The translations under genes were made by a program, and so were the position numbers. Shown here in pieces: positions 13,685 to 47,285 of a DNA stretch of 64,000 nt (its first letter is position 1; each line of letters starts with the position of its first letter). The stretch spans positions 352,001 to 416,000 of the forward strand of contig OY762007.1 in NCBI GenBank assembly GCA_963665115.1, written 5' to 3'. This DNA comes from an uncultured Rivularia sp. (GTDB lineage: Bacteria; Cyanobacteriota; Cyanobacteriia; Cyanobacteriales; Nostocaceae). Under the pieces are notes generated by a model. That model was given only the letters and a program-made list of their open reading frames with translations. It had not been told where the DNA came from and ran no database searches.

Positions 13685-16226
13685 ATGTCACAGAAAAAGA
13701 AATTTGTCAAAAAGGGACAGGTCTACCGTTCCTTGGTTGCGGCTGCATTGATTGCTAATGGTGTATTTCAATTTATTGCTCCTGTATTAGCTCAAACATC
13801 AGCAGGTGGGGAAATTAAGAACAGAGCTACGGCAACCTACGAAGACCCCCACAGATCCGGGAACAACAATCAATACCACATCCAACGAAGTAGTTGTACA
13901 AGTTGCGGAAGTAGCAGGTATCACCGTTACAGGTGCCGGTACTACATTGAACACGGATGCTGATGGCGATAATACTCCCGATGCTGGCGATGAAGTTTAC
14001 TTTAACTACACCGTTACTAACGTTGGTAATGACTCAACACAGTTCAGAATACCAAACTTAGCAAGTACAACAGGTCCAGCTACTGTTTCTGGCAGTTTGG
14101 AATATAGTACTGATGGTGGTACTACTTGGATACCAATCGACAGCGGTGCAGGAGAAACTGAAGTCACAGTACCGGAGATTCCAGTTGGGGGTACAGTACA
14201 AGTTCGCGTTCCTGTTACAGTCGCAGCTGGTGCTCAAGCAGACGATATTATCACCGTTAAGTTGGGTGATACTCCAGGTGATGCCCAAAACCAACCACGT
14301 AATCCTGATGGTGGTGACATTTACACCGTGGATAACCCCGATGGCACTGGTAATGGTGAAGTAGATGGCGCTCCTGTTAACGGTACTCGTGAAGCTAGTG
14401 CTACTCAAGAAATTCAAGTCGATGCAACCTTAAAGACCTATGCATTGGCAAAGGTACTCAAAGAACGTAGTGACTACAGTAATTCGGGAACTCTAACTGA
14501 TATTACTGATGACACTTTAACCTACGACCTCAGCTTAGAAGTTGAGCAAAATGATTCTACTAACAGTGGAATTACTCCTGCACCATTAGTTGGTACAAAT
14601 ATTACTGTTGATGGTACCGCTAGTCCCCGTATCTTAGTTTCCGATGCAATTCCAGCTGGTACAGACTTGGCTAGCGTGCCTGCTGCACCTCCTGGTTGGG
14701 AAGTCGTTTACACCACAGATGCGGTAACAATAGATGCCAATGCAGCGACTTGGACTACAACAGCCCCGTCTCCTTTATCAACCGTAACCCGCGTTGGTTT
14801 TGTTAACAATCCTGGTATAGTCACCTCTGTTAACCCAGGTCAAACGGTAACTGGTTTCAAGATTAATCTTGTAGTTGAATCAACGGCAACAGCACCGTTA
14901 ACTGTCAACAATATCGCTCAGTTATTCGGTTCGTCTCCTGATAACGATAACGATGCCACCAACAATCCTCCAGTATATGACGAATCTGGTGATCAAAACC
15001 CCAGTAACTTTAATGATGATGGTACACCACTGACAGGAACAGATCCTGATGGTGATGGTATCCCCGAGACATTACCTGATACTGTTGTTGATGATGGTTT
15101 CATTGACGATCCTGCTGATGAAACGGCGACTGGAGTTGACACTGGAAACAATAACAGCGCTACAGGCAGTGAAGGTGGTGAACTGAACCAGTTTGTTATC
15201 GACCCAGATGCAAATGCACTAGTGAATGGACCTGAAGGTAGTCCAGATGCAATTGGTCCTACAGATAATAACGATGACTTCACCAACAAGTCTTCCTTAG
15301 TACCGCCTAATCTTGTACCAGATAATGGTACTACAATCGACCCAGCACCCGTAGCTTTCACGAATACCGTTGAAAATGGTAGTGCTACTCCAACTGATAT
15401 TTCACTGGTTCCCGCCCCACCTGCTAATCCCGCGGATTTACCTACTGGTACTACAGTAACTGTTAGTTATGATGCTGATTCTGTAGTTTACACCTGGGAT
15501 GGTACCAACTTTAATCCTCCTGCTGGTACTCCTCCTATTATCATTACTGCAGTACAACCTGGTCAAGAAGTCAACTATGGTGTTGAAGTCAACTTACCAA
15601 GTGATACACCTTTATCTACTGACTTGAATGACCCCGCAGACCCCAATTCCGGTACAATCGGTGGTTTCCCAGTTCCGATCAGAGCCTTTGTTGACGATGG
15701 AACTCCAGGTTTCGATGGTACAGAAGTTAACAATATCACTATTGACCAGGTATACACTGGCTACTTAAGACTGGATAAAGAGTCTAGAATTCTCAAAGGT
15801 GATGGCCCAGACGTATTAACTGGTCAGGATCAGTTCAGTAAAGATGAGAAGCAGCCTTCGGAAGGCAACTTGATTGAATACCGAATTATCTACAGCAACA
15901 TCTCTGATGCTGAAGCTGGAGATGGCAACATTACTTTAGATGCCGATAATGTGGTAGTCGAAGACGATGGTACCCTTGGTGATAACAACTGGGCAAAAGA
16001 CAATGATGGCGATAACATTATTGATACCAGTAACGTAGTTGGTTCTGCTCAAGATTCTGATGGTGGAAATATCCAATTCTTCAGCGGCGATCCTGCAACA
16101 ACTACCGCACAAGATCAAACAGGTACAGATGCTAATACTGATGTTACTAAGTATGTAGACGAAGTGGCACAACCTGTTGAACCTGGTGCGTCAGGAAACT
16201 TCACCTTCCAACGTAAGGTTAACTAA
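13685..16226 (+). CDS. Secreted acidic multi-Ig DUF11 protein, putative major fibre subunit (apparent +1 frameshift at 13846-13850)
   Basis: Signal peptide ..APVLA-Q; EIKNRATATYEDP|TDPGTTINTTSNEVVVQVAEVAGI; ends GNFTFQRKVN. Confidence 0.8.
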
Positions 16227-16236
16227 ATAAGTTTTG

Positions 16237-16267
16237 AATAGGGATGTTGGATTGCAACATCTCTATT
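16237..16267 (+). terminator. Stem-loop after the putative major subunit
   Basis: AATAGGGATGTTG-GATTG-CAACATCTCTATT. Confidence 0.55.
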
Positions 16268-16452: not shown

Positions 16453-17029
16453 ATGAAAATAAAGCATGGCTCGTTTGTAGGTTTAAGCGCTCTAGCGATT
16501 ATCGCAACTATTTCCTTTAGCAATGCAATTCCTGCTGTCACGAATGCATTCAGTGGTGGAATTGCAAACGCGCAAAATGCTAAGAAGTCACAAGTACAGC
16601 TACGCTTAGAAGCTGAAAAGAAAATTGTTGGCAAAGATGCTCAAGGCAATAGAAAAGTAACTTGGCAAGGATTAAAAGATGGCGCTCAAGTACAGCCAGG
16701 AGATGTATTACGTTACTCTGTAAGTGGTGCAAACAATGGTACTAAAGCAGTCAAAAATCTTGCTATCAATCAGCCAATTCCTAGAGGAATGTCTTTCCTA
16801 CTGAATTCTGCAACTGTAAATGCTAATTCCGGCGCACAAATTACTTACAGTATTAACGATGGTAAGACTTTTGTAAAAAATCCTACTGTCCAAGTTAAGT
16901 TAGCAGACGGTACGGTAGTAACCCGTCCCCGCTCCAGATATTGCTTATACTCACATCCGCTGGAACTTTGGTAAATCCGTTCCTGCAAAAGCAGCAGTTA
17001 ATGGCACTTATCAAGTAAAAGTACGGTAA
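16453..17029 (+). CDS. Secreted single-domain DUF11 protein (apparent +1 frameshift at 16927-16930)
   Basis: GAGG SD; signal peptide; LEAEKK..QPGDVLRYSVSGANNG..INQPIPRG..TRP|APDIAYTHIRWNF..GTYQVKVR*. Confidence 0.8.
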
Positions 17030-17485: not shown

Positions 17486-19051
17486 GTGAGCCGCAAAAAG
17501 AAGCGATACCAGATTTATGGTAGTAGCTGGTTCCGACGGATAGCGGCTACCTTTTTAGCAGGAAGTATTGTTCAAAGTTCTATCTCTACATTTGCTCAAG
17601 AGGTTCCGAGTCCGTCAATTAACAACCAAGCTGAATTTAGTTATAAAAATAAAAAAGCTAGTCAAAATTTTCGGGGAATTACTAGTCAAATACAACTTGC
17701 TCCTTCAACTTCTGACCCAGAATCACCATTAATCGACCCGTTTGGACAAATTTTAGGTTGTAATAGCGAGGAATTAGACGATTATACGGGTTTTAGAGTT
17801 ACTTTATTTAATCCTGACCCTAACGACGCAACAGGAACAGAACCGGGGACAGAGGTTGACTTAACTGTAACCGATGACGATCCAAATACTGCTACTCCTC
17901 AAGGTATACAACCCAATATTACGAATACTAATAATTATGCTGTCACGAATGAAGCAGTTATTGATAGTAACGGTGAGTCTAAACGAGGTGTTTATAACTT
18001 CTTGTTTGACCAAAGCAAGAATCAAACCGATGTAGGTCGTACTTATATTTTAGTTATTAATCCTCCAGAAAATTCTAGTTTTACCGAGCGACGAATAAGA
18101 TTAGAAATTCAAAGTTTAAATGGCAATATCCTGACTTATATTGCTACCGCTTTAGATGGTCAGCCGATTACTGCTACAGGTGAAAATGCCGTTCAAATTT
18201 CTGATACTCAAATTTCCCAAGAATCTGTAGTTATCGATGATGCGGAAAGAATCGGATTAGCTTTAGCCCTTCAATTTAATTTAGATTTATGCTCTCCCGA
18301 GCAAATCCGCATCACTAAAACCGGAGATAGAGCTACAGCAGAACCTGGAGAAACGACTGTTTATCGTCTCTCGTTGAGAAATACAGGTGATGTTGGTTTG
18401 AATGATATAGTCGTTACCGACCAATTCCCCCTCGGATTCAAATTCTTACCCAAATCTGTTCGCGGTCAAATTGGGGATGAAGAAGTTGCTGTAACTACTG
18501 AAACAAATGGTTCAACCGTTACCTTCCGGACTGATGCAACAATTCCGGTTGATGGAGTTCTTAATATTGCTTACGCTGCAAAATTAACTCCCGATGCGGT
18601 GCGTGGTTCGGGTAGGAATACAGCGACTGTTAACGCCGAACGTATTGATAATGATTTTGCTGTCAAAGATGGACCAGCATCCCATTTACTTAAGATTCGT
18701 CCGGGAATTACTTCCGATTGCGGTACTATCATCGGTCGCGTATTTGTTGATAAAAACTTTGATGGGGAACAGCAAGCAGGTGAACCGGGAGTACCAAATG
18801 CGGTGGTCTTCTTAGAAAACGGCAACCGTATTACTACTGACCCAGACGGATTATATTCTGTCAAAAATGTATTGCCAGGTAAACATACAGGCGTTCTGGA
18901 TTTACAGAGTCTACCCGGCTATACTTTGGCTCCCAATGTCAAATTCAAAGAACGCAACAGCCAATCACGACTAGTAAATTTAGAACCTGGTGGAATGGTA
19001 AGAATGAACTTCGCAGTCACTCCTAGCTTTGGTGAGGAGGCAAAGAAATGA
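17486..19051 (+). CDS. Secreted DUF11 plus SdrD-B-like protein, putative base/anchor subunit
   Basis: SINNQAEFSY; ITKTGD..PGE..Y..VTDQFP..RNTATV; GRVFVDKNFDGEQQAGEPG; ATGA overlap with the next gene. Confidence 0.8.
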   Translation: MSRKKKRYQIYGSSWFRRIAATFLAGSIVQSSISTFAQEVPSPSINNQAEFSYKNKKASQNFRGITSQIQLAPSTSDPESPLIDPFGQILGCNSEELDDYTGFRVTLFNPDPNDATGTEPGTEVDLTVTDDDPNTATPQGIQPNITNTNNYAVTNEAVIDSNGESKRGVYNFLFDQSKNQTDVGRTYILVINPPENSSFTERRIRLEIQSLNGNILTYIATALDGQPITATGENAVQISDTQISQESVVIDDAERIGLALALQFNLDLCSPEQIRITKTGDRATAEPGETTVYRLSLRNTGDVGLNDIVVTDQFPLGFKFLPKSVRGQIGDEEVAVTTETNGSTVTFRTDATIPVDGVLNIAYAAKLTPDAVRGSGRNTATVNAERIDNDFAVKDGPASHLLKIRPGITSDCGTIIGRVFVDKNFDGEQQAGEPGVPNAVVFLENGNRITTDPDGLYSVKNVLPGKHTGVLDLQSLPGYTLAPNVKFKERNSQSRLVNLEPGGMVRMNFAVTPSFGEEAKK

Positions 19052-22000
19052 AACGACAATTAAATCGTACAGATACTTTTAATTTAAAGTTAGTCGGTGT
19101 AATGGCAGGAGCTATGACTGTGGTGTTATCCCCAATCATCGCAAGTGCAGAGTCTAAATCACAATCTACAAAACTTGAAGTTACAAAAGGAAAAGATTCC
19201 GAAGATAACAATCAATCTACTCGTTCTAAAAGAATTCTAAAAGTACTTGAAGTCCAAAATCGGAATAGTAAGAATAGTAAGAACAACAATAAAGATAAAA
19301 TTACTCCAGATTTTAATGAAGAGAGTAATACAGATTTGACTGCTAATTTACAAAAATTAGTAGCAGAAGGCAATAATAGCGCAGGATATATTTTAGCTGC
19401 ATTAAAAGCATCGGATATAAATGCAAAAAAAATATCTAGCAGTTTACAGAAGTTGGCAGACGAACGTAAAAAGGCGAATGATGAAAAGCTGATTGCTTTA
19501 AAGTCTGTTGAAGTTTCCGAACCTAAATTATCTCTAGTACAAAAGCTAAAAGTAACGCGCAATCATATCACCGATTCAAAAAAAGAATTGGTTGCTTTAG
19601 AGCCATCTCACAGTGAGAATAAGCTGCTTGAAGAAGATAACATGAATTTAGAGACGCAATCTATTGCGTCTACTATTAAATCTGAGAAAATAACAATTAA
19701 AGAGGCAGAGTATAATCCATTTTTACAAAATAGTTTATTTTCGATAGATATAGATAAAAAGTTATCTGATAACTTGCAAAAAATAAATCCAGCGGATAAT
19801 TATTTAGTTGCTTTAGAACCTTTTCTTGACGAACAAAAGCCAGTTGAATCGAAAATTGGTTCAAATAGTAAAGGTAAATATTTACTCTCTCTAGAACCTT
19901 TTATTAACGAAGAAAAGCCAACACAATCACCACAAAGTTCTACAGATAATTATTTTCTTGCTTCATTAACTAGCGAGAAAAATACATTTGCTTCGCGCAC
20001 ACTAAGCCCTTCGGGCATACTTAGCGAACGCGAACGCACTGAGAATTTTAATACTTGGAATGCTCCCAAACGTGGTAACTATTTTCTTGCTTTAGAACCT
20101 TTTCTTAATGAACAAAAGCTGGTTGAATCGAAAATTAGTCCAAATAGTAATTATTTTCTGGCTTTAGAACCTTTCCTCAAGCAAGAACAATCAGTAGAAT
20201 CTCAAATTCAAAATATATCAGAAAACGAAACAAATGTAAGACAATGGTTTTCTCAACTGGTTGCAATCAATGTATTTGAATCAACCCCTAAGAATCAAAT
20301 ACTAGAAAATGCCCCTACTTTAATTGCAAAGAATTGGAACGCAGATAATTTTACCAATAAAGACTATAGTTTTACATCATTAGTTGCCATAAAACCTTCA
20401 TCTTTTGCAGATAATGCAGATAATTATGAAAATAATTCATCTGAGATGCAACTAGCAGCAAGGTATAGTTCATTTAATTCTGGTGACAATCGCAATCAAG
20501 AGTTTCCGGGAAATAACCTGCTGACAGTTTATTCTAAATCTCCTTTTGGATTACCGAATTTAGAAAATTTAAACCCTAATTTAGCACCAAATTCTACTCA
20601 ATATATTTCTCAATTTCCCAAAGATACTAATAATTCTTCAACTGTAGTAATCCTCTCACCCACACCTGATGCTCTTGTGGATGTGGCTGCTACTCCAATT
20701 ATCGTGCAGTTCCCCGTAGGTAACGAAGTAGAATTACGAGTTAACGGGGAATTATCCGACCGTTCTTTAATTGGACGAACCGAAACAAACCCCGATACCG
20801 ATTTAGTTACGCAGACTTGGTATGGTGTTTCTCTGCAAAATGGAGAAAATGTTATATCGGCTCAGGTTCTTGGCTCCAAGGAACCTCCCGCTACGGTAAA
20901 GATAATGGTAAGGGGTGGAGCGAACGAACTAAAAATAGATACGGTAGAAGCACGGATTCCTGCTGACGGAATTTCTACGGCGACTATTAAAGGTACGTTA
21001 CTCGATGAAAATGGCAATCGTTCCAATCACGATGCAGTTGTTACTTTAGCAACTACTGCTGGGGAATTTGTCGAACCCGATTTTAAACCAGGACAACCGG
21101 GATTTCAAATACAGGCAAAAACTGGAGAATTTACTGCAACTCTAAAATCCGATTTAGAAGCGAAAACTGTACGAATTAAGGCGAAAGCTGGAAAATTAGA
21201 AGCTTTTACACAACTGCAATTTCAAACGGCTTTGCGTCCTAGTTTGATGACGGGGGTTATTGATTTTCGCTTAGGTGCTAGAGGTACAGATTTCTATAGT
21301 AGATTTAAAGATTTCCTCCCAGAAGACGAAGACAACGATACCGAAGTCAAATTCCGTTCGGCTGTATTTGCAACTGGTGCAATTGGTGAATGGCTGGTAA
21401 CTGGTGCTTATGATAGCAGTCGCTCTTTAAATGAAGATTGTAACTGCGATAATCGCTTATTTGGAACTTACCAGTTTAACGAAAATAATTACCCTACTTA
21501 CGGTGATAGTTCTACAGTAAATGCTACGACTCCATCTACTGACAGCGTATATTTACGGTTAGAGCGCTCGTCTCGTACTCCGGGGGCTAATCCCGATTAT
21601 GCGATGTGGGGTGATTACAACACTGAAGAATTTTCTCGTTCTTCACAGCAGTTTACTTCCCTGACTCGTCAGCTACACGGTTTCAAAGCTAATTACAATA
21701 TTGGCAAACTTCAAGCTACAGCTTTCTACGGCAACAATATAGAAGGTTTTCAACGCGATATCTTACCCCCTGACGGAACCAGCGGTTTTTACTTTTTATC
21801 TCGCAGATTAACCGTACCCGGTAGTGAAAGTGTCTTCATTGAATTAGAAGAATTGAATCGTCCCGGTACCGTATTGCAACGGGAACGGTTGAATAGGGGT
21901 GCGGATTACGAGATTGATTACGATAGAGGAACAGTTCTATTCCGCGAACCAGTTTTACGTACAGATGTCAATGAATTTGGTGAAGTTTTGGTAAGACGTA

Positions 22001-24027
22001 TTGTCGTTACTTATCAATACGAAGGAGAAGCAGGAAACGATACTGATATTTACGCGGGAAGATTGCAATATAACTTCTCTCAAGGGGCAGAAAAAGATAG
22101 CTGGTTGGCTACAACTTATCTCCAAGAAAATCAAGGCGATCGCGATTTTGAATTGTACGGTGCGGATGCTCAATTTACTTTTGGTAAGTTAGGTAAAATT
22201 GTTGCCGAATACGCTCGGAGTCGCAACGATTCCGACGAGATGGGAATGGTGGAAGGTGATGCTGTCAGGGCTGAAGCTGAAGCAGAATTTATTAAAGGTT
22301 TACGCGCTCGCGCTTATTACCGTTTTGCAGATACTGGATTTGCAAACAACGCTACTATTAGCTTTGTCCCCGGACAAACTCGTTACGGAGCGCAGGTTAA
22401 CGGAAGAGTTTCCAAGACAACCAATTTACGGTTTCAGTACGACCGTGAAGACAACTTTGGGATTGCACCTCAACCGCTGGATACTTTTGAAGAGTTCTTT
22501 TCACCTCGTACAACAGCTGTTCCTGGTAGTGAAGTTGATAACTCTTTAACTACAATTTCTGCTGGTATCGTACAGAGATTGGGTAAAGCTAGCTTATCAG
22601 TAGATTGGATCAATCGGGAACGAGAAGATCGGATATCACCCCAAACTCTCAATACAGATTCTAGTCAATTACGTTCTCGTCTTAATGTTCCTATTGCCAA
22701 AAAACTTTCTTTCTTAGCTCAAAACGAAACTACATTATCTGACGATACAGATGCAGTTTACCCAGATAGAACTGTCTTCGGAATTAACTGGGAAGCGATT
22801 CAAGGTATTAATCTTTCGTTAACGCAACAGTTTTTTACTCAAGGACAATTTGACGGTAATTCTATCACCAGTTTCAATGTCAATGGGGAACATAACTTTG
22901 GAACGGATACCACTGTTACCGGACGTTTCTCTGTATTGGGTGGTTCTAACGGACCTACTACTCAAGGTGCTTTAGGTTTAAAACAAGGTTTAACTATAGC
23001 TCCCGGATTGCGGTTGAGTATGGCTTACGAACACGTTTTTGGCGACTTCTTCGGTCGTAACGGTTCCGGAGTACAATTCGCACAACCTTTCGCTGTAGGT
23101 TCGAGTACTGCGGCTTTAGGTTTCAATTCCGGAGATAGTTATAGTGTCGGCTTGGAATACACCGATAATCCAGACTTCAAAGCCAGCGCTCGGTTTGAAC
23201 GCAGAAGTTCTTCAAGCGGAAATAATACCGTAATTTCCGCAGGTGCTACTGGTAAAATTTCATCTTCAATTACAGCTTTAGCACGCTATCAACAAGCAGG
23301 TTCGAGCAATCAAACTTTGAGAGCATTAGGAGATACGGCTAATTTAAGAGTTGGTTTAGCATATCGCAATCCTAAAAACGATAAACTTAATGCTTTATTG
23401 CGTTATGAATATCGTAAAAATCCTTCAACGATTCCCGAAAGTATTTTACTCGGAAGCGGTTCTGGAGCAGAAGACCATACTTTTGCCATTGAAACAATCT
23501 ACGCACCGAATTGGCAATGGGAATTTTATGGTAAATATGCTTTACGCAACAGTACCACTTACTTAGCTAACGATTTTTCATCCAGCACTTCAACCAATTT
23601 AGGACAGTTACGCGCTACCTATCGCTTGGGATACAGTTGGGATTTAGTCGGAGAAGCACGAGTAATTAAGCAATCTGACTATACGGAAACTGGTTTTGTT
23701 GTCGAAGCAGGTTATTATCTAACCCCGAATTTAAGAGTAGCTGGAGGTTACGCTTTTGGGGAAATAGACGACCGCGATTTTGATGGTAGTCGTTCCGCTA
23801 GCGGACCATATTTGGGTGTGACAATGAAGCTTAACCAGTTATTTAGCGGCTTTGGTTTACAGAAAAAAGTACCCCGCAAAGAAATAGAAGCACGACAAGG
23901 CTTATTGAATAAACTTAGAAACGAGAAAAACCCAACCACTCAAACATTAACCGAAAGAATCAAAAGAGCTAACACAAAGAATGAAATAGAAAAAAAAGCT
24001 GTTGTAAAGACTGACGACGAGGAGTAA
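19048..24027 (+). CDS. Large putative outer-membrane beta-barrel protein with Ig-like N-terminal domains
   Basis: Signal peptide; low-complexity N-terminus; invasin-like IPADGISTATI; long region of alternating aromatic strands ending GPYLGVTMKLNQLF. Confidence 0.75.
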   Translation: MKRQLNRTDTFNLKLVGVMAGAMTVVLSPIIASAESKSQSTKLEVTKGKDSEDNNQSTRSKRILKVLEVQNRNSKNSKNNNKDKITPDFNEESNTDLTANLQKLVAEGNNSAGYILAALKASDINAKKISSSLQKLADERKKANDEKLIALKSVEVSEPKLSLVQKLKVTRNHITDSKKELVALEPSHSENKLLEEDNMNLETQSIASTIKSEKITIKEAEYNPFLQNSLFSIDIDKKLSDNLQKINPADNYLVALEPFLDEQKPVESKIGSNSKGKYLLSLEPFINEEKPTQSPQSSTDNYFLASLTSEKNTFASRTLSPSGILSERERTENFNTWNAPKRGNYFLALEPFLNEQKLVESKISPNSNYFLALEPFLKQEQSVESQIQNISENETNVRQWFSQLVAINVFESTPKNQILENAPTLIAKNWNADNFTNKDYSFTSLVAIKPSSFADNADNYENNSSEMQLAARYSSFNSGDNRNQEFPGNNLLTVYSKSPFGLPNLENLNPNLAPNSTQYISQFPKDTNNSSTVVILSPTPDALVDVAATPIIVQFPVGNEVELRVNGELSDRSLIGRTETNPDTDLVTQTWYGVSLQNGENVISAQVLGSKEPPATVKIMVRGGANELKIDTVEARIPADGISTATIKGTLLDENGNRSNHDAVVTLATTAGEFVEPDFKPGQPGFQIQAKTGEFTATLKSDLEAKTVRIKAKAGKLEAFTQLQFQTALRPSLMTGVIDFRLGARGTDFYSRFKDFLPEDEDNDTEVKFRSAVFATGAIGEWLVTGAYDSSRSLNEDCNCDNRLFGTYQFNENNYPTYGDSSTVNATTPSTDSVYLRLERSSRTPGANPDYAMWGDYNTEEFSRSSQQFTSLTRQLHGFKANYNIGKLQATAFYGNNIEGFQRDILPPDGTSGFYFLSRRLTVPGSESVFIELEELNRPGTVLQRERLNRGADYEIDYDRGTVLFREPVLRTDVNEFGEVLVRRIVVTYQYEGEAGNDTDIYAGRLQYNFSQGAEKDSWLATTYLQENQGDRDFELYGADAQFTFGKLGKIVAEYARSRNDSDEMGMVEGDAVRAEAEAEFIKGLRARAYYRFADTGFANNATISFVPGQTRYGAQVNGRVSKTTNLRFQYDREDNFGIAPQPLDTFEEFFSPRTTAVPGSEVDNSLTTISAGIVQRLGKASLSVDWINREREDRISPQTLNTDSSQLRSRLNVPIAKKLSFLAQNETTLSDDTDAVYPDRTVFGINWEAIQGINLSLTQQFFTQGQFDGNSITSFNVNGEHNFGTDTTVTGRFSVLGGSNGPTTQGALGLKQGLTIAPGLRLSMAYEHVFGDFFGRNGSGVQFAQPFAVGSSTAALGFNSGDSYSVGLEYTDNPDFKASARFERRSSSSGNNTVISAGATGKISSSITALARYQQAGSSNQTLRALGDTANLRVGLAYRNPKNDKLNALLRYEYRKNPSTIPESILLGSGSGAEDHTFAIETIYAPNWQWEFYGKYALRNSTTYLANDFSSSTSTNLGQLRATYRLGYSWDLVGEARVIKQSDYTETGFVVEAGYYLTPNLRVAGGYAFGEIDDRDFDGSRSASGPYLGVTMKLNQLFSGFGLQKKVPRKEIEARQGLLNKLRNEKNPTTQTLTERIKRANTKNEIEKKAVVKTDDEE

Positions 24028-24146: not shown

Positions 24147-26309
24147 ATGTATAAAAATACTAAAAAAAACTCTTTTGAAAAGTTCAACGCAGCAAAACGT
24201 TTATTAATTAGCCTACCAGTTTTATTACTAACGGCTCCAAATATCGCTTTTGCTCAACCAACTACAGCTTTAAGTTTAAGCGTAACAGTCAACAGCAACC
24301 AGGATGGAAGCATACAGGCTGATGATAAGCTAACATTACGCGAAGCAATTGCCATCGTCAACGGTAATCTATCTGTAGAAAAACTCAGTGCTGCTGAAAA
24401 ATCTTTGGTTTCATCTGGGAATAACCAGTCTCGGATTGAATTTAATCTTGCTCCCGGACAAACTACAATCACCTTAGAAAGCATTCTCCCAGCTTTAACA
24501 AATCCAGGATTGATAGTTGACGGTACCTCTCAACCAGGATACAAAGCCGATAAATCTGCAACCGCAGAAATTGAGATTCCCATTCCAGTTGTAGAAATCA
24601 CTTCCGCTGCCGACAAACAAGTATTTCGCGGTTTAACGGTAGCAGCCGATAATATTACAGTTCAGGGATTGAGTATATATGGGTTTAGTTCAAAACATAC
24701 AGATACAGCTAGCTTACCTCCAGGGGATGTTGTTGTTGTACCCTATCGTTCCGTTTTAATACAAGATAGGGAGACAAGGGGACAAGGAGACGAGGAGAAT
24801 TCTTCTCAGCCACCCAAAAATGTCAACATTAAAAATAACTGGTTGGGTATTACCTCAGAAGAACAAGTTCCTAATAAAACTTCGGCTTTTGGGGTTTCTG
24901 TATTTGATGCAACTGGTACAAATATCAACCGTAACCTGATTGCAAATCATGAAGGTAGCGGAATTATTACTGGAAAATTAGCAGAAAATACTCAAATTCA
25001 ATCAAATATCATCGTTGGTAATGGAATAGCTGGTGTTCCCGATGCAATTAGACTGGAAGGTCGAATTAATAATTCTCAAGTTACTTCAAACTTAATTTGC
25101 GCCAACGACGGCAGCGGAGTGTACTTGTTTAAGCCAGAAGGCTCAGTACAAATACAGTCAAACAATATTAAGTATAACGGTAGACGCTTGCGACGTGCGG
25201 GTGTTTACTTGATGGGTAATAACCATCAGGTAGCTAATAACCAAATCACCAATCAACCAGGTTCCGGAGTTGCGATTACAGCTTATCCCGACAGCAAAGG
25301 AAACGTTGTCAGAGACAACAGCTTTGGCAATATAGAAGGATTGAGTATCGACCTCAACTACAGAAATACTGCCAGCGTCCGCGATTTTCAACGAGGAGAC
25401 GGTCCCAACCCACCGAGAAATTCTGGAAATCGTCGTAAGGATACCGCAAACGGTGCTATCAACGCTCCAGAGTTTCTCAGTTCCGAATTTATTATTATTA
25501 ACGGTAAAGTAAATATTGACGGAAAAGCCGACCCAGGTAGCGAAATTGATATTTATAAAGTAAATCCCAATAGCAGACAGCAAATAGATTTATATCCCGC
25601 ATATTCCGCATTAGGGGAAGTAATTGGCAGAGTTAAAACTGACGAAAAAGGTAGATTCAAAGCCACCTTTACAAACCTGCAACCTGGGGAAATTATTAGT
25701 GCGATCGCCACTCAAAATAAATACGGAACCTCAGAACCAGCAGCGAATGCAATAGTTAAATCAGTTGGTAATTCCGGAATCCAAAATCCACAATCCCCAA
25801 TCCAAAATTTTGAAACCCCCAACTGTACAACCCGTCCGGTAGCACCAACACCAGAACCACCAATTCCTCAACCACCAATTCCAGATCCAATACCCGAACC
25901 ACCCGCACCAATTCGTTTAAGCGTACCTAGAAACGTCCACTTTGCACTAGATAAAGACTTTATCAGTCCCAAAAGTGGAGAAGTTCTAGATAAAATCGCT
26001 GAAGTCATGGAGCAATATCCCAACATAGTCATTGAACTACAAGGACATACCGACTCCCGCGCTAGCGTTGCTTATAACCAAGATTTGGCGAAAAGACGCG
26101 CAACAAACGCGAGAAATTACCTAGTTAAAAGAGGTATCGCACCCGAAAGAATGACCATTCGTTCCTTTGGAGAACGGAAATTACGGACAGAGGAAAATAA
26201 TCGAGTAGATTACGCACGCAACCGTCGAGTTGAAGTATTGTTCTTTGATGTTAGGGGAATTGACATCGAATTTGAGAATCAGGAAAGAGATTTGCAGATA
26301 GAAAAGTAA
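24147..26309 (+). CDS. Right-handed beta-helix protein with Pro linker and C-terminal OmpA domain
   Basis: VNSNQDG..LTLREAI; I.NN.I repeats; VHFALDK..GHTDSRASVAYNQDLAKRRA..RNRRVE. Confidence 0.88.
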   Translation: MYKNTKKNSFEKFNAAKRLLISLPVLLLTAPNIAFAQPTTALSLSVTVNSNQDGSIQADDKLTLREAIAIVNGNLSVEKLSAAEKSLVSSGNNQSRIEFNLAPGQTTITLESILPALTNPGLIVDGTSQPGYKADKSATAEIEIPIPVVEITSAADKQVFRGLTVAADNITVQGLSIYGFSSKHTDTASLPPGDVVVVPYRSVLIQDRETRGQGDEENSSQPPKNVNIKNNWLGITSEEQVPNKTSAFGVSVFDATGTNINRNLIANHEGSGIITGKLAENTQIQSNIIVGNGIAGVPDAIRLEGRINNSQVTSNLICANDGSGVYLFKPEGSVQIQSNNIKYNGRRLRRAGVYLMGNNHQVANNQITNQPGSGVAITAYPDSKGNVVRDNSFGNIEGLSIDLNYRNTASVRDFQRGDGPNPPRNSGNRRKDTANGAINAPEFLSSEFIIINGKVNIDGKADPGSEIDIYKVNPNSRQQIDLYPAYSALGEVIGRVKTDEKGRFKATFTNLQPGEIISAIATQNKYGTSEPAANAIVKSVGNSGIQNPQSPIQNFETPNCTTRPVAPTPEPPIPQPPIPDPIPEPPAPIRLSVPRNVHFALDKDFISPKSGEVLDKIAEVMEQYPNIVIELQGHTDSRASVAYNQDLAKRRATNARNYLVKRGIAPERMTIRSFGERKLRTEENNRVDYARNRRVEVLFFDVRGIDIEFENQERDLQIEK

Positions 26310-26320
26310 TTTCCCCTGAT

Positions 26321-27922: not shown

Positions 27923-28099
27923 ACCATTGACATCGTATTTTCACGCATTATAAAAATATTTCAATTAGTAATTATACGGAAGTCAAAAACAATAAATAAA
28001 AGTTTTAATGCCAGTGGGAAAGGAACTTTAAACTATCTTTATATTTAAATTTTTAAATCAGCAAAAATAGCACCATTGTAATATTTATCACTCAAAGCT

Positions 28100-29935: not shown

Positions 29936-29947
29936 CCCACAACTAAT

Positions 29948-32675: not shown

Positions 32676-32687
32676 CCCACAACTAAT

Positions 32688-32833: not shown

Positions 32834-32867
32834 AAAAAAATTATTTTAAATATTAAACAAAACACCT

Positions 32868-35800: not shown

Positions 35801-37148
35801 TGCAGAAATTAATGCTTATATTCTTGGTAACTTGCATCAAGATATTATCACCACACCAGGCGTTGTCATGCGATGGCAGTTTGCTCACCGTGGACGCACA
35901 GGTAATGATACTATCCGAATTAAAATCGGAGCACCAGGAGCAACGGTTAACCAAGGAGAATTTACTACAGGCAACACTGAGTGGAAAGTTTATAGTGGTA
36001 CCTATACCGTTCCCGTCGGTCAAACAATTACACGTTTTGAGTTTGAAGCCGTTAGTACAGCCAATGGTGATGCTAGTACAGGTAACTTTATTGATGATAT
36101 CCGTTTCGGCGTAGACTGTAACAACAGCATTAACGGTACGGTTTTCCAAGATTACGGAACAACCACCGATAGCAATACCGGAAATGATGTCCTAGATGTA
36201 GATGAAAGCGGTATCCAAGATGTTGGTATTAGCCTTTATCAAGATGGTGGTGACGGTGTCTTTGGTGATGGAAACGGCAATCCAGGGGGCGATGATACAG
36301 TTGTCGGTAGCCCAGTAGATACCGATAGCGACGGTAACTACAACTTTACAGGACTTATAGCTGGCAACTACTGGGTTGATGTAGATACAGATGATGAGGA
36401 CTTAAAGGGTCGTGCTTATGGTGGTGGTGATGCAGATGCAACTCAGACCGATCCACGTTTGGTTACAATAGTCCCAGGTAACGACCAAACCGTAAACTTC
36501 CCTTTCAATGCCAACAACCCTAATGTTTTATTAATCAAACGCATTACCAAAATCAACGACGGTACCACTACCAACGACGGTGATAACCTCTCAGTTTACA
36601 ACCAAGATAGCTCCAATCCTTACGACGATAATGAATTAGACAATCCCGCACCCGACCCAATCGACACTGACAAATGGCTTGATACCACCTCAGACACAAG
36701 CAGTACCTTCCTCATCGGCGGAATTAACGGTGGTACAGTAAAACCCGATGACGAACTAGAATACACAATTTACTACCTCTCAGCAGGTGACACCGAAGCA
36801 GAAAACGTATTATTTTGCGATCGCGTTCCTGAAAATGTTTCTTTTATCCCCACCAGCTTTAACGGTGAAGCAAATAAAGCAACGGGAGGATTACAAAACG
36901 CGGATAGGGGTATTCAATGGTTAAAAGACGGTAATACAGAATCTTTAACCAATGTCCAAGATGGAGACGTAGCTCAATACTTCCCCCCTGGTGTTGAACC
37001 TTCTACGCTTTATCCAAAAATCAAGTGTGATGGTACAAATACGAATGGTGCGGTTGTCGTGAATTTAGGTAACTTACCTAATGCTACCGCTCCAGGTACG
37101 CCAAATACTTCTTATGGATTTGTTCGTTTCCGAGGAAAGGTGAAGTAG
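32868..37148 (+). CDS. Adhesin C: donor hairpin, Ig, propeller, two GEVED domains, lectin-like domain, SdrD-B, truncated DUF11
   Basis: FSC..NDGMSC; two DGEVEDY; NGGFESP..GNFIDDI; LIKRIT..YGFVRFRGKVK*. Confidence 0.82.
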   Translation: MLNPKFKPNLQRKKRIYDYRPLLMTFLLTGSNWLSALPLLAANSTPGTVIDNQATGSFTDPNDSNNEVQIESNVVQVEVAEVAGITISQSAIPEEAPSGVTDAGANQGNGDINPDDVIYFTYKITNVGNDPTQFFIPDAPSSVNNGSLNGNIQIIEYDPDGASAVDLTSDNITVPSNGDTTGSLLNGVANTNDGSVPVGGSITIRVPIKADSNLSDGDTVTVIMGDTGSNDNSAATQNQVYAVGTNDVYTEDNPNGTTGETDGTPINGDATNNRQEASFSQDVTVSAINTNPFSCARAFYQVIDNQLKKLDPLTGNYLNIGSPAPGHYNAAAYNSIDNFIYGYGREGSIAGHLVKISQDGALQDLGAPTKIKGVGSLESAHSGDFDNSGNLWLRSSASGAFIYRLNVQTNEYEGFAFSQDIGNVADLVYINGKLYGAQSNKLYIIDITNPVSGTTLSVTTATVSGLPASTGNPSFYGAAYTDIADNLYVSRNTNGAGSGELYQVIGYDTGTPKAVKLVDTQTTNKNDGMSCPNALPPLDLDLGDAPDSGAGTGSNNYNTLAIDEGPLHIINSNIYLGSAVTADTDGFGDGTDNNGDASDDANDDGVQLSSASLQGQSLTAGQTVNLDITTAGSGKLSVWFDWNQDGDFDDADEKVATDIAPSSNAISLPVNVPATATEGTTYARFRYSSQDGLTPTGTASDGEVEDYQVEIAAAPTVFDYGDAPNDLSSIDGDLSSAYPTLDAENGAKHTIDGSTFLGSGVNNESDGQPTLNADGDTDDGVTFPTLGSNTALVVGQNNTITVEASKTGVLNAWVDWNQDGDWDDPGEQIATNEALSAGSNTLNVNPGTTTPHGATYARFRFSSQSNLSPTGAASDGEVEDYKVNVVIPEITACLAPLLNGGFESPAVNGSTPTPLEVFQSGRIVAYRESEVDAWAYISSNPNSSKSDRSPTGFEQRNAIELWRTGNLLNVPPHEGNQFAEINAYILGNLHQDIITTPGVVMRWQFAHRGRTGNDTIRIKIGAPGATVNQGEFTTGNTEWKVYSGTYTVPVGQTITRFEFEAVSTANGDASTGNFIDDIRFGVDCNNSINGTVFQDYGTTTDSNTGNDVLDVDESGIQDVGISLYQDGGDGVFGDGNGNPGGDDTVVGSPVDTDSDGNYNFTGLIAGNYWVDVDTDDEDLKGRAYGGGDADATQTDPRLVTIVPGNDQTVNFPFNANNPNVLLIKRITKINDGTTTNDGDNLSVYNQDSSNPYDDNELDNPAPDPIDTDKWLDTTSDTSSTFLIGGINGGTVKPDDELEYTIYYLSAGDTEAENVLFCDRVPENVSFIPTSFNGEANKATGGLQNADRGIQWLKDGNTESLTNVQDGDVAQYFPPGVEPSTLYPKIKCDGTNTNGAVVVNLGNLPNATAPGTPNTSYGFVRFRGKVK

Positions 37149-37359
37149 ACAATGCTGCAACGTGTTTTATCCTATTACCCAAGACGTAGCATTGCTACGT
37201 CTCTACACTGTTTTTCGATTTACCCTCGAAGATAAAAATAACTGTTCCCTATTCCCTTTTGCTAATTAGAATTTTTAACGCTAATCTACTTATGATTTAT
37301 ATTTAATGGTTTTCAGGGGTTGCTACCAAAATCAAACCATTTTATAGTCAATCATCAAA

Positions 37360-39992
37360 GTGAAAAATCTTTACCAACAAATTAAATCGAATCATATTCG
37401 ATACCAGAAAAAGACTCGTAATTTCACTTCTCTTACTTATCACTTAAAAGTATTTCTAGCTCTGGCAATATTCACAACCAGTCCTTTTTATTGGCTGTTA
37501 CCCACCCTTGCCAATACTGCACCGGGAACCACAATTAATAACACTGCTACAGGTTCCTTTGAAGATTCAAACAACCCTGGTACTGTAACAAGCATTGAAT
37601 CTAATACGGTTTCGGTCACAGTTGCCGAAGTTGCGGGTATTACTATTACTCAATCTGCAATCCCAGAAGAAGCCCCCAGCGGTGTCACTGATGCGGGAGC
37701 TAATCAAGATAATGGTGAAATAAACCCAGACGATATTATTTACTTTACTTATAAAATTACTAACGTCGGTAACGACCCCCACACAATTTTTTATTCCTGA
37801 CGCACCTAGTAATATTACCAACGGTAGCTTAAGCGGAGATATTCAAATTATTGAATATGACCCCGATGGTGCTTCGGCAGTAGATTTAACTAGTAATAAT
37901 ATTACAGTTCCTAATAATGGAGCTACCACGGGAACCTTATTAAATGGGGTTGCTAATAGTAATGATGGTTCTGTTCCGGTTGGGGGTAGTATTACAATTC
38001 GCGTTCCCGTTAAAGCTGATTCAAATTCAGCTGATGGGGATAATGTAACTGTAATCATGGGTGATACGGGAAGTAATGATAATTCCGCAGCAACGCAAAA
38101 CCAAGTTTACGCTGTGGGTACTAATGATGTTTATACCCAAGATAATTCAGATGGGACAACGGGGGAAACCAATGGTAATCCAGTTAATGGGGATGCAACC
38201 AATCATCGACAGGAAGCGAGTTTTAGTCAAGAAGTGACAATCGTGGCAAATCCTAGCGGTCCCGTTGTTACTACAAACTTTTGCTCCAGTGCTTACAACA
38301 TGATTTACTCGGGGCATTTCCCTAATAGGATCGATGCGATTCACGTTGATAGCGGTGCTTCTGTGCCGTTGACAACATCAAATATTGCTGCTAACACTAA
38401 CAGTCTCGCTAGCGACCATATTAATAACTTAGTTTACTATGCAGAAAACCAGTCTATTTATGCCTGGAGTCCAATTACTAATACACATACTGTGATTACA
38501 AGTAATATAAAAGGCTTCGCTGGCACTAGCAATATTAGCAGTCTTAGTAGTGGTGGTGCAGCTTTTTATAATGGCTCGCTCTACCTGGGTATTGATGAAA
38601 ATCAACATACTGGTGGTGCTGAAGTTTACAAAGTTGATTTTGTACCTGGTTCCAATGGTCAGACAGTTCAAAGCGTGACTTCGCTTAATATCGCTAGTTT
38701 GATTCCACCTAGCGATTGGGGGGATCTTAGTATTGATAATAATGGTGTAATATTAAGTGCTACCCCCGATGGCTTTTGGACTTATAACCTAAACAACGGT
38801 ACATACACCTCTCTTTCGAGTAACCTTCCAGGAGGTCAGCACCAACTAGCTAAAGATGGCCAAGGTCGCCTATGGGCTGTAGTTTACACGCCGACTAAAT
38901 TCATCTTTCAAGTTCAGGTTGTTGGTAATAGCATTCAACAAGTAGGTCAAACTATTTCTGTAGATCCTCATGACACTAATGATGCTGCTGAATGTGTAAT
39001 TGGTGAGTCTAGTATAGGCGACCGTGTTTGGAATGATGCTAATGAAAATGGCGTGCAAGATGCTGGAGAAGATGGTATTGAGAATGTCACAGTTGACTTG
39101 TACTGGGACATTAACGGCAATGGTCAAATTGATAATGGTGACGATCCTGTATTAGCAACCCAAACCACAGGTACTGATGGTAATTATGATTTTCCTGACC
39201 TAATTTTTGGTAATTATATTGTTAAAGTTTCCGATACCAATGGAGTGCTTACAAACGCTTCATTGACTAGTGCGTCCGATACCCACAGCGTAAATTTATT
39301 ACCTGGCACTGTAGATTATAATGATGCAGACTTTGGTTATAAACTGGCAATTGCCAGCAATCCCGATGTCATTCTAGTCAAACGCATCACCAAGATTAAC
39401 GATAGTACTACTACTAATAATGGTGATAACCTCTTAATTTACAATCAAGAAGAATCTAACCCCTACGACGATAATAAATTAGACAATCCCGCACCCGACC
39501 CCAATCGACACTGACAAATGGCTTGATACCACCTCAGACACAAGCAGTACCTTCCTCATCGGCGGAATTAACGGTGGTACAGTAAAACCCGATGACGAAC
39601 TAGAATATACTATTTACTACCTCTCAGCAGGTGACACCGAAGCAGAAAACGTATTATTTTGCGATCGCGTTCCTGAAAATGTTTCTTTTATCCCCACCAG
39701 CTTTAACGGTGAAGCAAATAAAGCAACGGGAGGATTACAAAACGCGGATAGGGGTATTCAATGGTTAAAAGACGGTAATACAGAATCTTTAACCAATGTC
39801 CAAGATGGAGACGTAGCTCAATACTTCCCCCCTGGTGTTGAACCTTCTACGCTTTATCCCAAAATCAAGTGTGATGGTACAAATACGAATGGTGCGGTTG
39901 TCGTGAATTTAGGTAACTTACCTAATGCTACCGCTCCAGGTACACCAAATACTTCTTATGGATTTGTTCGTTTCCGAGGAAGAGTAAAGTAG
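37360..39992 (+). CDS. Adhesin D, mosaic of B and C modules (apparent +1 frameshifts at 37776-37780 and 39499-39502)
   Basis: Comparison with paralogue C shows one extra C at each site; ends YGFVRFRGRVK*. Confidence 0.75.
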
Positions 39993-42037: not shown

Positions 42038-42038
42038 A

Positions 42039-42158: not shown

Positions 42159-42287
42159 TTACTGGTAATGCTGGTACCGGAGAACCAAATCTAACAAGCT
42201 TACCCGGTTCCACCGGAGAAGGTTTTGTAACAGTAATTAATATATTAACTAATGCTCACTAAAGCTAATATATGATAAAATTTATGT

Positions 42288-43936: not shown

Positions 43937-44485
43937 CGAATGTTAGCAAAAAAGTATCGGTACCCCGAATAATTCTTACGGATTATTTCGGTTTACACTC
44001 AAAGTAAAACGTTAATTTTCAATTCTGCTTTTTTAAACCTGTATTTTCCCGGATGTTAGGTAATATCCGGGAAAATTTCTGCTATTTATTGTAATTTCAA
44101 TAGTTTTACGTAGATACAAATCATGATTTTATATGCAATATATGAAGTAAGAGAAAAATCTCATTTGGTTTAGTTGTTTTAATCTATGTCACTTGTGTTT
44201 TTGCATCCTGAAAAACATATTTCTTTTTTTAGAATATGCAATCTTGAAGTAAAGATAATGGTTCTACTATGATTAATAACAAAAAAACTTGATTGGAAAA
44301 TATTTTATGGGATTTGCTTGATTCTCCTGTAGGTAAGGAATGCGCCTCCTTGCTTAAATATATAAACATCCCATAACTTTGGCTGAATTGTGTGAATAAT
44401 TCAGGTTTTTTAATGTCATATGCTGCGTTGAAAAAGCATATGCCAAATTTATAAAGTTCGGTTCTAATTGTGACACGCGGCTTGA

Positions 44486-47285
44486 GTGAGTGCATCAATG
44501 AAATATATGTTAAAAGGGTTGTATCTTAGTAAATCTAAATTTACTAACGTTAAAATAAATATAAATATACAGCTGTTTAGGAGTTTATTTTTTACATTAT
44601 TTATTTTGAATCTGTGGACGTTAACAGCAAAAGCTGAAGGTTCAAAAGACTTAGTTGAAAAAGGCGGAGATAGACCTTATACAGAATGGGCTACAGCTAC
44701 ATCTGCAAATATTGAACGTAAAACCAGGCTCAAGGTTTTTGTTAAGAATGGAGAAATCGTAAATCTTGGCTCCAGCGTACATAATAGTTCTGATGGTAAA
44801 GATATAGTCTTTCGCAGTCCTTCTGGTGTTGAGCAAGTTTGTGATGTTCTGACATCTGGTGAAGGCTTTATAGATACCGTAGCTAAAGAAACTGCTGGTC
44901 CTTTACCCAATACTGGGGGTTATACACCATGTACCTTTACAGCTACAGAGACAGGAATTTACGATGTAGAATTTCATTCCCCTAAAACCAGTGGAGATCC
45001 ACCTGTTAGGTCGGTAACGCAACAATTCCCTACAGGTAATACACAAGGGCAAGCTGTAGCTGCTTGGGATATTACAGTTCGAGATGGTGCAAATACTAAG
45101 ATGGGACGGGTATTTACCAACTATGTTGCGATGAACATGGGAGCTAGCGGTCAATCTCTCAACTCAGAATTTTTTATTCAAACAAAAGATGGTTTTTTAT
45201 ATAAAACCGTAATGAATGGGGTAGACCCTTTCGGGTTTATTTTCTTTGGTAACAGCAGGGGATTTATTGACAAAACTGATAATAGTACCCTCTATCATTC
45301 TGCTAAAGCCAATAATAATCAATTATCTCCATTTCTAGGAAACGTTCAAGTACAGCGTCCCGATGTTGCGGATACTCCAACCGATATTACTCATTTAACA
45401 TTTTTCAATACTCCCGACCCGGAGACTCTAGATGAATTAGGGATTCCCCGTACACCAGCAATTCCAGCAACACCAACGAACTTTGAATTTACTGGTGGTA
45501 CTGGTGGAAGCGGAAACCAAACTTTTGTAGGTGTTGGGGGAAATTTCAGTTTTGATTCTACAAGCGCAGGTAGTTACGAAATTATTATTGACACGGATGA
45601 AGATGGTGTATTTGACCCCAGTCAAGATAGAGTCTTACAGAATATAGCTAATCTCGGTAGTAACGTCGTATCTTGGGATGGTCAAGATGCTGACGGTAAT
45701 AATGTGGGTCCTCGCGTTAATAACGACCCCTACAATGCCAGAATTAGACTGCGAACTGGAGAATATCACTTTCCCATGTTGGATGCGGAAAACAATCCTA
45801 ATGGATTTGTGATTGAAATGCAAAATCCACCGACTGCATTTCCCAATGGATTTAACGAATTTACTGTCTACTACGATGATGACGATTACACGACTAGTGA
45901 CGGTACACCTGTAAGCTTGGACGATAGCGGTGCGAGTAATCCCCGCAATGCTGCGACTGGAACTGATAGTTCTACTGGAGCGCACAGGTTTACTGGGGAT
46001 TACGGTGATTTTAAAGGAATCGATACTTGGTCTTATTTTCCTAGTGAAGGAACATCAACCAATCTGATTATCACCAACGATAAATCTGCAAATGTACGCG
46101 GTACTAAATCGGTACAGTTCTTTGAAGACAAAGATAGTAGCGGTACCGTGACTGTGGGAGATACCGTTGAATACACTATTACATACAGCAATAATGCTCC
46201 TGAAGCTACCACAGACGCAAATAATTTTACGATCCAAGATGATTTACCACCACAATTAACTTACAATTCATCTCAAATCGTTTCGCAAACAACTGGTAAT
46301 AATATTCAGCTAAATTCTTCCTATAACGGTTCTGGTGCATTAACTAATTCTGGTACTTTGAGAATTGATGATGAAATTACTATCAAAATAATCGCTACTA
46401 TTGATGATAGAAATAATGGAGACTCAATTAGCAACCAAGCTAACGCAACTTTCACTACACCCGATAACCCAGCAGCAACTGGAAGCGCTTTAACCGATGC
46501 TGATTCTGCGGGAGTTACCCAAGATAATCCACCAACTGTAGGGAGTGCTTTCAAACAAATTGATGATGATAGTCAAAATACCGGAAACGACCCCTTCAGA
46601 TACAGCAGATGACGAACCGACTCTTATCAATGTAGAAGAATCACCTGTGGTAAGCGGTTCTCCTAAGATTATTTTAGTGAAGAGAATTACAGCACTTAAT
46701 GGGGTTGATTTTAACGACTTTGTTGATGACCCCAATAGTGCTGACGATAATAACTCGAATTGGCCAGACTCCGATCCTTCAGATACAAATAGAAATGATT
46801 TTTTACGTGGAATTATTAGCGGTGCTTTGGTTCTTCCTGGTGATGAGTTGGAATACACAATCTACTTTCTTTCAATGGGTGAAACAGATGCCAGCAAATT
46901 AAGAATCTGCGACTTAATACCAACTTATACAACTTTTCTTCCTACAGCTTTTAATGGTTCAACACCTAGAGATGGTGGATTGCTCAATGCAAATTTAGGT
47001 ATCGCAATTTCTCTAGATAATACTAATTTTTCTAGCACTCCAACGGCTTTTATAACTAATATTGCTGATGGTGATAGAGGAGAGTTTTTCGATGCTGGAA
47101 AAAAACCATCTATGGATTGTTCTCGTAGCAATAATGGTGTGAATGACAATGGCGCTGTTGTTGTGAACATGGTCAATAAAGATAATGCTAACCAAGATAT
47201 TATACCTACCGCAAATGTTGACCAGACACAACCCAAACCAACTAGTTCCTATGGTTTTATCAGATTTAAAGTCAAAATTAATTGA
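44486..47285 (+). CDS. Adhesin E: signal, unknown head, complete DUF11, truncated DUF11 (apparent +1 frameshift at 46591-46594)
   Basis: AKA-EGS; GTKSV..GDTVEY..IQDDLP..ISNQANATF; LVKRIT..PGDELEY..ICDLIP..YGFIRFKVKIN*. Confidence 0.78.

Follow-up and report, generated by a model that had tools for sequence, protein, structure and literature searches.

The locus and its genes

A locus of ten co-oriented genes and one remnant, at positions 13685..47285 of a DNA stretch from an uncultured Rivularia sp., is examined here as a candidate surface-fibre system built from split DUF11 domains. The window, i.e. the whole stretch analysed, comprises 64,000 nucleotides (assembly GCA_963665115.1, contig OY762007.1, positions 352,001 to 416,000 of the forward strand); coordinates refer to it, and genes are named by their start. 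All ten genes and the remnant are present as given in a preliminary description, which was made from the sequence alone. Two elements recur in their products: a 'socket', which is a truncated C-terminal DUF11 domain, and a 'plug' or donor hairpin, which is an N-terminal two-strand hairpin carrying an asparagine (Asn). The features are as follows.

13685..16226, + strand: likely shaft subunit; signal peptide, donor hairpin, Ig domain, complete DUF7925 domain, Ig domain, C-terminal socket
16453..17029, + strand: small socket-only DUF11 protein; likely donor-hairpin assembly chaperone, or cap
17486..19051, + strand: likely base/terminator; donor hairpin only (17615), complete DUF11 domain, SdrD_B-like domain
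19048..24027, + strand: giant outer-membrane beta-barrel protein; low-complexity N-terminal part, invasin-like Ig domain, predicted single-chain barrel
24147..26309, + strand: beta-helix and OmpA-family peptidoglycan-binding protein (Pfam/NCBIfam)
28100..29935, + strand: likely tip adhesin; N-terminal repeat region, SdrD_B domain, C-terminal socket with Lys and Asp, donor absent
30105..32675, + strand: likely in-line minor subunit; donor hairpin (30270), Ig domain, 28100-like module, socket
32868..37148, + strand: likely in-line minor subunit; donor hairpin (33012), DUF6923, two GEVED domains, socket
37360..39992, + strand: likely in-line minor subunit; donor hairpin (37531), mosaic of 28100-like and 32868-like modules, socket
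43947..44015, + strand: remnant; last strand of a tip-type socket, gene-less, adjoining an IS607-like element
44486..47285, + strand: likely tip adhesin; N-terminal domains, complete DUF11 isopeptide domain, C-terminal socket with Lys and Asp, donor absent

DUF11 (PF01345)/TIGR01451 matches were obtained with Pfam and NCBIfam for 16453, 17486, 44486 and the tip and minor sockets; the shaft socket was matched as DUF11 by custom profiles only, and the named homologues of the shaft are cyanobacterial. The barrel protein gave Ig matches only. Its start overlaps the stop codon of the base gene 17486, and the barrel is likely to be the export and anchor platform. The product of 24147 is a likely periplasmic tether; a gene of this type is absent from some related loci. 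The N-terminal repeat region of 28100 is propeller-like as judged by eye, and 30105 contains a module with 94% DNA identity to 28100. By a hydropathy heuristic, the sole means by which signal peptides were judged, a basic start and a hydrophobic stretch occur in 10/10 N-termini, most weakly in 30105 and 32868.

Sockets and plugs

Seven products had been described as ending abruptly after a DUF11 strand, and all seven C-termini can be read in the sequence, on the + strand: FTFQRKVN (ending at 16226), TYQVKVR (17029, after a frameshift), FRFTTTVKP twice (29935 and 32675), FRGKVK (37148), FRGRVK (39992) and FKVKIN (47285). Each of these socket proteins terminates on a beta strand, and none has a C-terminal LPxTG motif, hydrophobic anchor or basic tail. 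The five N-terminal Asn donor motifs are likewise in place, at 13811, 17615, 30270, 33012 and 37531; SN.V.V.V follows the motif in four of the five, with TSQIQL instead in 17486. The internal Asn strands of complete domains were located at 14898, 18605 and 46418. The claim of a complete DUF11 domain in 13685 holds in part: its model has a CLIPPER-like fold and matches the CLIPPER crystal structure, but its Pfam family is DUF7925.

The sockets hold the lysine (Lys) and the aspartate or glutamate (Asp/Glu) of an isopeptide triad and end before the Asn strand; the plugs hold the Asn and the last strand. In the shaft, the Lys strand lies at 15765 and the acid strand at 15951. The small protein 16453 retains the Lys, and its catalytic Asp is replaced by Gln (16762-16782). 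Genes of the Asn-hairpin set are socket-only, plug-only, or both.

A profile of the complete domain was built from 107 domains of non-cyanobacterial barrel-fusion proteins, with window seeds left out; it places Lys at position 16 (73/107), Asp at 50 (89/107) and Asn at 113 (92/107). The window sockets align within positions 19-101 of this profile, and the four donors of shaft type do so within 92-140, with weak scores (2.7-11.6 bits); this profile did not bring the 17486 donor into register. A separate donor profile, based on 352 shafts found in other genomes, matched 5 of 54,551 genome-wide reading-frame segments, all at predicted donors. Two of these five are the halves of the frameshifted 13685 donor, and the 17486 donor was not reached. 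The latter is found in register by a base-donor profile from 61 non-cyanobacterial proteins (7.4 bits; orthologues 4.7-21.9 bits).

Natural fusions of socket and plug

A second line of evidence comes from proteins in which both parts occur in one chain. In one related genome (G025), a shaft match was obtained and a barrel match was absent. The match sits inside a 2709-residue protein with RTX repeats (L120 2262-10391, − strand), in which the last two domains of the shaft (487 bits) are followed, six residues on, by the shaft's donor hairpin (profile positions 45-78, E 8.8e-9). This genome had been considered as a case of a barrel-free fibre; that reading was rejected, the match being an internal, self-completed module of an RTX-repeat protein.

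A search with the 201-residue fusion module matched the shaft socket module in 99 of 401 genomes drawn from the window's order, roughly a quarter. In six of the 99, from five families (the others at L126-L130), the module runs to position 195-201 with no stop; the remaining matches end at or before 184, mostly at 160-170 with a stop codon. The plug begins 1-6 residues after the socket in the five fusions placed by profile. In G251 a single residue separates the socket from the donor and first Ig domain behind it, and as read from its sequence this is a fused copy of the predicted subunit-subunit junction. Across the fusions Asn is kept in 6/6 and Lys in 4/6, and the usual acid motif is found by pattern in three. 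RTX repeats occur in five of the six proteins, the sixth being cut by a contig end, and no barrel match was found in any of the six genomes, one of which is 82% complete. Since the six may share one origin, they are counted as one line of evidence. The fusions show that the proper place of this plug is behind this socket.

Because the profiles are complementary, natural fusions exist, and donor-only and acceptor-only genes are unable to complete themselves, the plug very probably completes the socket in trans, between chains. The complementation between subunits put forward in the preliminary description thus has strong sequence support on these three grounds.

The isopeptide triad

A CLIPPER crystal structure contains a Lys715-Asn806 bond with Asp748, according to the available passages of PMC12617251. 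The three strongest couplings in 392 complete domains are Asp-Asn, Lys-Asp and Lys-Asn, in agreement with these residues. Among the 366 domains that could be scored (26 were dropped for gaps), Lys and the acid occur together in 312/337 with Asn versus 4/29 without it; after clustering at 50%, the figures are 202/224 and 4/25. All three residues lie in one chain in the internal domains of 17486 and 44486, and this is untrue for the seven C-terminal sockets.

Split cyanobacterial shaft sockets keep Lys and acid in 97/97 cases, with the donor Asn present in all. In non-cyanobacterial split shafts both residues are found in 243/248 (25/30 clustered), a set chosen with a pattern that demanded the donor Asn; where this was not demanded, donor Asn was present in 375/380 shafts, and 34/414 candidates had no donor match. 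All these conservation counts include related sequences and are to be read as patterns rather than p-values. The arrangement known from BsaA, with Asn on the donor and Lys plus acid on the recipient, is found in all 97 shafts and in the window motifs. As the sockets keep Lys and acid though their own Asn strand is absent, a covalent lock is favoured, and the join is likely to be closed by a spontaneous Lys-Asn isopeptide bond between chains.

In seven Bacteroidota loci (L084, L094, L097, L103, L111, L112 and L117) the shaft and giant tip sockets are missing either the Lys or the Asp; the donors seen there mostly retain Asn. These loci are likely a non-covalent branch.

Distribution and conserved layout

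The barrel was found in 22/31 related genomes and in 18/18 within the genus, and its family comprises 1,838 representatives at 50% identity. Among 18 homologues, chosen mostly for length, 12 carry DUF11 and six carry OmpA in the same chain; many start with the donor motif. Fusions of base and barrel, some including OmpA, occur in other phyla and support the proposed coupling of base, barrel and OmpA.

A scan with a distant barrel alignment yielded 77 loci in Desulfobacterota, Nitrospirota, Bacteroidota, Marinimicrobia and others. The usual layout is tip, small socket, shaft, and then a donor-bearing base fused or adjacent to the barrel. The survey of barrel neighbourhoods that had been proposed thus finds this order recurring across phyla, and with it the assignment of roles by content (donor plus acceptor, acceptor only, donor only). 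In 62 loci of at least 12 kb, simple patterns detected the shaft in 42, the small protein in 34, the tip in 39 and the donor-only base in 33. All four were detected together in 17 loci. Contig ends and the strictness of the patterns make these numbers undercounts.

Among 151 genomes of the window's phylum, the small protein was matched in 15, the shaft profile in 17 and the barrel in 23. All 15 genomes with the small protein also match shaft and barrel, and seven barrel genomes have neither shaft nor small protein. Loci with base, barrel and tip, in which shaft and small protein are absent, occur in G030, G074 and G109. The small protein follows the shaft in its distribution: shaftless loci are also without it, and it therefore goes with the shaft.

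The window's own genome holds two further barrel loci with base and tip (G000:C1:959597-971452 and 3276567-3283938), in which shaft and small protein are absent. One has an OmpA gene, and several genes there look frameshifted.

At the catalytic position, the small protein has Gln in 18/19 closer orthologues (including the window's), Asp in one, and Gly or Ala in four distant ones. The idea that it always lacks the catalytic acid was rejected: this is true for 22/23 in the window's phylum and contradicted by 22/28 elsewhere. Whether 16453 and its cyanobacterial counterparts act as a non-locking, reversed chaperone that shields the shaft plugs is evenly balanced.

Structure models

The shaft of locus L015, 85% identical to the window's open reading frame (ORF), was modelled as a monomer with AlphaFold2 (predicted local distance difference test, pLDDT, 84.1; predicted TM-score, pTM, 0.60) and shows four beta domains. 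Its second domain aligns with BcpA (Z 9.7, root-mean-square deviation (rmsd) 2.4, 122 residues aligned) and with CLIPPER 9IFR (Z 8.6, rmsd 2.6, 123 aligned). Fold searches with the shaft returned tandem-Ig and CnaA proteins, none a filament of this family, and barely covered the socket domain. Nothing meaningful was found among Protein Data Bank sequences, whether the query was the window's shaft, the profile of shafts, a distant shaft of short length or the small protein.

The barrel part (912 residues) was modelled with pLDDT 81.7 and pTM 0.78; the model has 32 strand elements starting at residue 268, and up to about eight more precede that residue. It is predicted to be a very large single-chain pore of roughly 35-40 strands. 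Solved structures, with FimD, SprA, LptD, SlpA and MtrB as the known large outer-membrane translocons considered, match it only generically (query TM at most 0.26; SlpA 0.25, FimD/PapC at most 0.21); the best Z score is 13.6, to MtrB, at rmsd 13.9. The look-alikes in the Atlas are unannotated outer-membrane proteins, and the barrel-protein profile found, among Protein Data Bank sequences, Ig domains of glycosidases and, weakly, porins.

Proposed mechanism and alternatives

The sequence patterns make it reasonably likely that the locus specifies a covalently locked fibre tied to a giant outer-membrane barrel. Subunits would be exported by Sec. The N-terminal two-strand hairpin of one subunit would complete the truncated C-terminal DUF11/CLIPPER domain of its neighbour, head to tail, to give a thin surface fibre in which a spontaneous interchain Lys-Asn isopeptide bond locks each joint. 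A tip adhesin would come first; shaft and minor subunits would then be added from the periplasm, via the barrel, and the plug-only base would end the chain and anchor it at the barrel, while the OmpA protein would tether the assembly to peptidoglycan. This order is drawn by analogy with chaperone-usher pili and is somewhat favoured. The small socket protein (16453) would cover shaft plugs until use. Shaftless loci would use the same joint for a short base-plus-tip adhesin. In some fusions OmpA lies between base domains and barrel; the base of such a protein would begin on the periplasmic side and need to extend through the pore.

A number of observations weigh against this scheme. A base fused to the barrel could terminate chains at once, so that long fibres are not assured. 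The small protein keeps the Asp in 22/28 non-cyanobacterial cases, which weakens a general chaperone role, and also in 1/19 of its closer orthologues. Nor would the lock be universal: the acid is absent in 18/55 proteins binned as tips (a mixed bin, in which 37/55 have it), several Bacteroidota sockets are missing either Lys or Asp, and Lys is lost in 2/6 fusions. The match of the window's base donor, at 7.4 bits, is weak. When 352 shafts (effective number 183) were examined by direct-coupling analysis, no signal between the donor and the socket could be interpreted. Finally, the L015 monomer model orders the donor hairpin at pLDDT 88-93, which may reflect closure in cis.

Three other explanations have to be weighed. 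The hairpin joint could be the same and yet non-covalent, with strand complementation only and the Lys, Asp and Asn as structural leftovers. Some lineages have no socket Lys or Asp yet keep the donor Asn, two fusions have lost the Lys, and some DUF11 domains have no bond (section 2.3 of PMC12617251, among the passages available). However, complete domains without Asn keep Lys plus acid in only 4/29 cases, whereas split cyanobacterial shafts keep all three residues in 97/97; a non-covalent joint throughout is distinctly improbable. Alternatively, there may be no long pilus, and the products could be short modular adhesins (base, one or a few spacers, tip) on the barrel, or a chain could grow outward from the base once secreted, capped by the small protein. 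The conserved plug-plus-socket gene speaks against this: it is kept in 42 of the 62 distant loci of at least 12 kb, stands first in the cyanobacterial operon and has no built-in stop to repetition. Its better points are the shaftless base-barrel-tip loci of this genome and others, the base fused to the barrel in many phyla, which may terminate early, and a small protein that usually keeps Lys and Asp outside cyanobacteria; on balance it is unlikely.

The third possibility, that plug-plus-socket proteins close on themselves as monomers or rings and that the cluster encodes separate barrel cargos, is very improbable. The AlphaFold2 monomer does order the donor hairpin and last socket strand with high confidence, and the fusions show that the module works within one chain; but there the plug comes behind the socket rather than at the distant N-terminal end. 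A ring of two-domain shafts, which have about 340 residues, would presumably have to be very tight, and the socket-only (28100, 44486, 16453) and plug-only (17486) proteins cannot complete themselves, yet are conserved together.

Comparison with known systems

The usher family (PF00577) has no match in the complete genome, with a positive control in E. coli, and none to the barrel protein (Pfam, NCBIfam). Sortase (PF04203) gave no match in the genome, with a positive control in 3/14. No PapD-type chaperone was matched among the locus proteins scanned, a genome-wide search not having been made, and TasA/camelysin had no Pfam or NCBIfam match in locus proteins. Type IV pilins, their ATPase and secretin, and Csg proteins were found in none of the 39 window ORFs scanned with Pfam (of 56 with at least 100 residues), again without a genome-wide search. 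The earlier statement that chaperone-usher, sortase, type IV and curli genes are missing here therefore stands genome-wide for usher and sortase, and for type IV and Csg genes among the window ORFs scanned.

In chaperone-usher pili such as Pap and Fim (FimH/FimA/FimI, with FimC and FimD), subunits have distinct roles, the chaperone fills the subunit groove, a single donor strand makes a non-covalent joint, and the usher has 24 strands. Here the small protein is itself a socket and not a strand donor, unlike a FimC-type chaperone, and the barrel resembles FimD/PapC only generically. The likeness lies in an acceptor-only tip, a donor-plus-acceptor rod, a donor-only terminator and a large outer-membrane barrel (PMC13721041, passages available).

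CLIPPER/DUF11 fibrillar adhesins (PF01345, PDB 9IFR) share the CnaA-like domain, the Lys-Asp-Asn triad, signal peptides, and GEVED and OmpA partners; their bond, however, lies inside one chain of tandem repeats, whereas here the domain itself is divided over two proteins and a dedicated barrel is added. The available passages of that paper (PMC12617251) do not mention a donor strand. BsaA of Clostridium perfringens assembles by donor-strand exchange, an N-terminal Asn bonding the Lys of the next subunit with catalysis by a recipient acid; it belongs to the TasA/camelysin family, uses a single N-terminal strand, is SipW-linked, and has its triad mostly in Gram-positive clostridia (passages of bioRxiv 10.1101/2024.11.04.621531). 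Unlike BsaA, which has no outer-membrane barrel, the present proteins are multi-domain subunits of DUF11 fold, with a plug of two strands and a socket at the C-terminus, and occur in diderms.

Sortase pili (BcpA, SpaD, RrgB) are covalent linear polymers with CnaA isopeptide domains (Z 8.5-9.7 to the shaft internal domain), but their link is made by an enzyme to an LPxTG end in monoderms; here sortase was not found. The archaeal thread resembles the proposed fibre in donor-strand assembly without an usher. The same likeness holds for tafi (PMC11821415) and the WxL/Elr pilus (10.64898/2026.10.17.759780), each as far as the passages available go. Those on tafi concern DUF1102, not DUF11, and the paper was accordingly rejected as prior art; those on WxL/Elr do not mention DUF11. 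The cyanobacterial CT pilus also has a nearby porin, but its pilin has a tubular fold and occurs only in cyanobacteria (PMC12397347, passages available).

By analogy, the locus resembles a chaperone-usher pilus in role logic and BsaA in chemistry, using the CLIPPER domain, and is a member of none of these families. The literature search suggested earlier found no prior description of this fibre system in the sources covered, most subscription journals lying outside them; supplements of PMC12617251 or of the BsaA preprint may list split domains. It is a real and conserved system of fibre type that has apparently not been described before.

Apparent frameshifts

The genes of the locus show five apparent breaks in the window, every one of them caused by a single surplus base within a run of C. 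The one-base errors are as follows.

13846: in 13685
16927: in 16453
37776 and 39499: in 37360
46591: in 44486

The extra base is absent at 13846, 16927 and 46591 in contigs of sequencing runs X2 and X3, X1 agreeing with the window there, and at 37776 and 39499 in contigs of X1-X3. The read contigs come from four runs of one study, of which X4 hardly covers the locus. The shaft, small, base and barrel genes are intact in the orthologous loci of G013, G005, G009, G012 and G020; in G001 the shaft gene is broken. The frameshifts are treated as assembly errors because read contigs are without the extra base and orthologues are intact. The reading as real pseudogenes was rejected in view of these contigs, the position in C runs and the intact orthologues. 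One more likely assembly indel lies at 43848.

Mobile elements and flanking genes

The tip and minor genes (28265-39992) are mosaics of near-identical modules (86-98% at the DNA level, in stretches of 0.25-2.4 kb), and related genomes differ in their tip set. Both suggest cassette shuffling of adhesin heads. A REP-associated tyrosine transposase gene (26903-27478; region 26310-27930; NF047646 below the cut-off, Y1_Tnp) lies between palindromic repeats. It is found at the same place in G013, G001, G009 and G012, and is absent there in G005. There are 13 such palindromes in the window, 12 of them inside the locus (including before 30105, 32868 and 37360), and 299 genome-wide. An IS607-like element occupies 42220-44030 (resolvase 42288-42884; TnpB-like from 42358); a contig of run X4 skips it.

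The other features of the surroundings are listed below.

829-2982, − strand: Bpu10I-type restriction endonuclease and N4/N6 DNA methylase
47350-49147, − strand: two tandem, nearly identical PD-(D/E)XK (Rpn-like) genes directly after the locus; also in G009, and one in G005
56967-63909, − strand: chemotaxis-like cluster with a CheA-type kinase, a two-GAF methyl-accepting protein and CheW

A promoter and terminator scan gave results at chance level.

Significance

Each principle involved has a precedent, in strand donation, the BsaA lock and ushers, and the parts belong to none of these families. The case is narrowly favoured for a new, widespread diderm pilus that would combine a split-CLIPPER plug, an enzyme-free cross-link, a reversed chaperone for the plug and a barrel of about 35-40 strands, bigger than any known usher, through which the chain would leave and to which it would stay permanently attached by the barrel's own plug; exchangeable adhesin cassettes would use the one covalent joint. 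If true, this would be a new pilus and export pathway for diderm bacteria. Covalent pili are already known among Gram-positive bacteria, where sortases make them; here the polymer would be covalent without an enzyme. Natural split isopeptide tag/catcher pairs would be on offer, and thousands of hypothetical DUF11/DUF7925 genes, together with an uncharacterised family of giant barrels, would gain testable roles.

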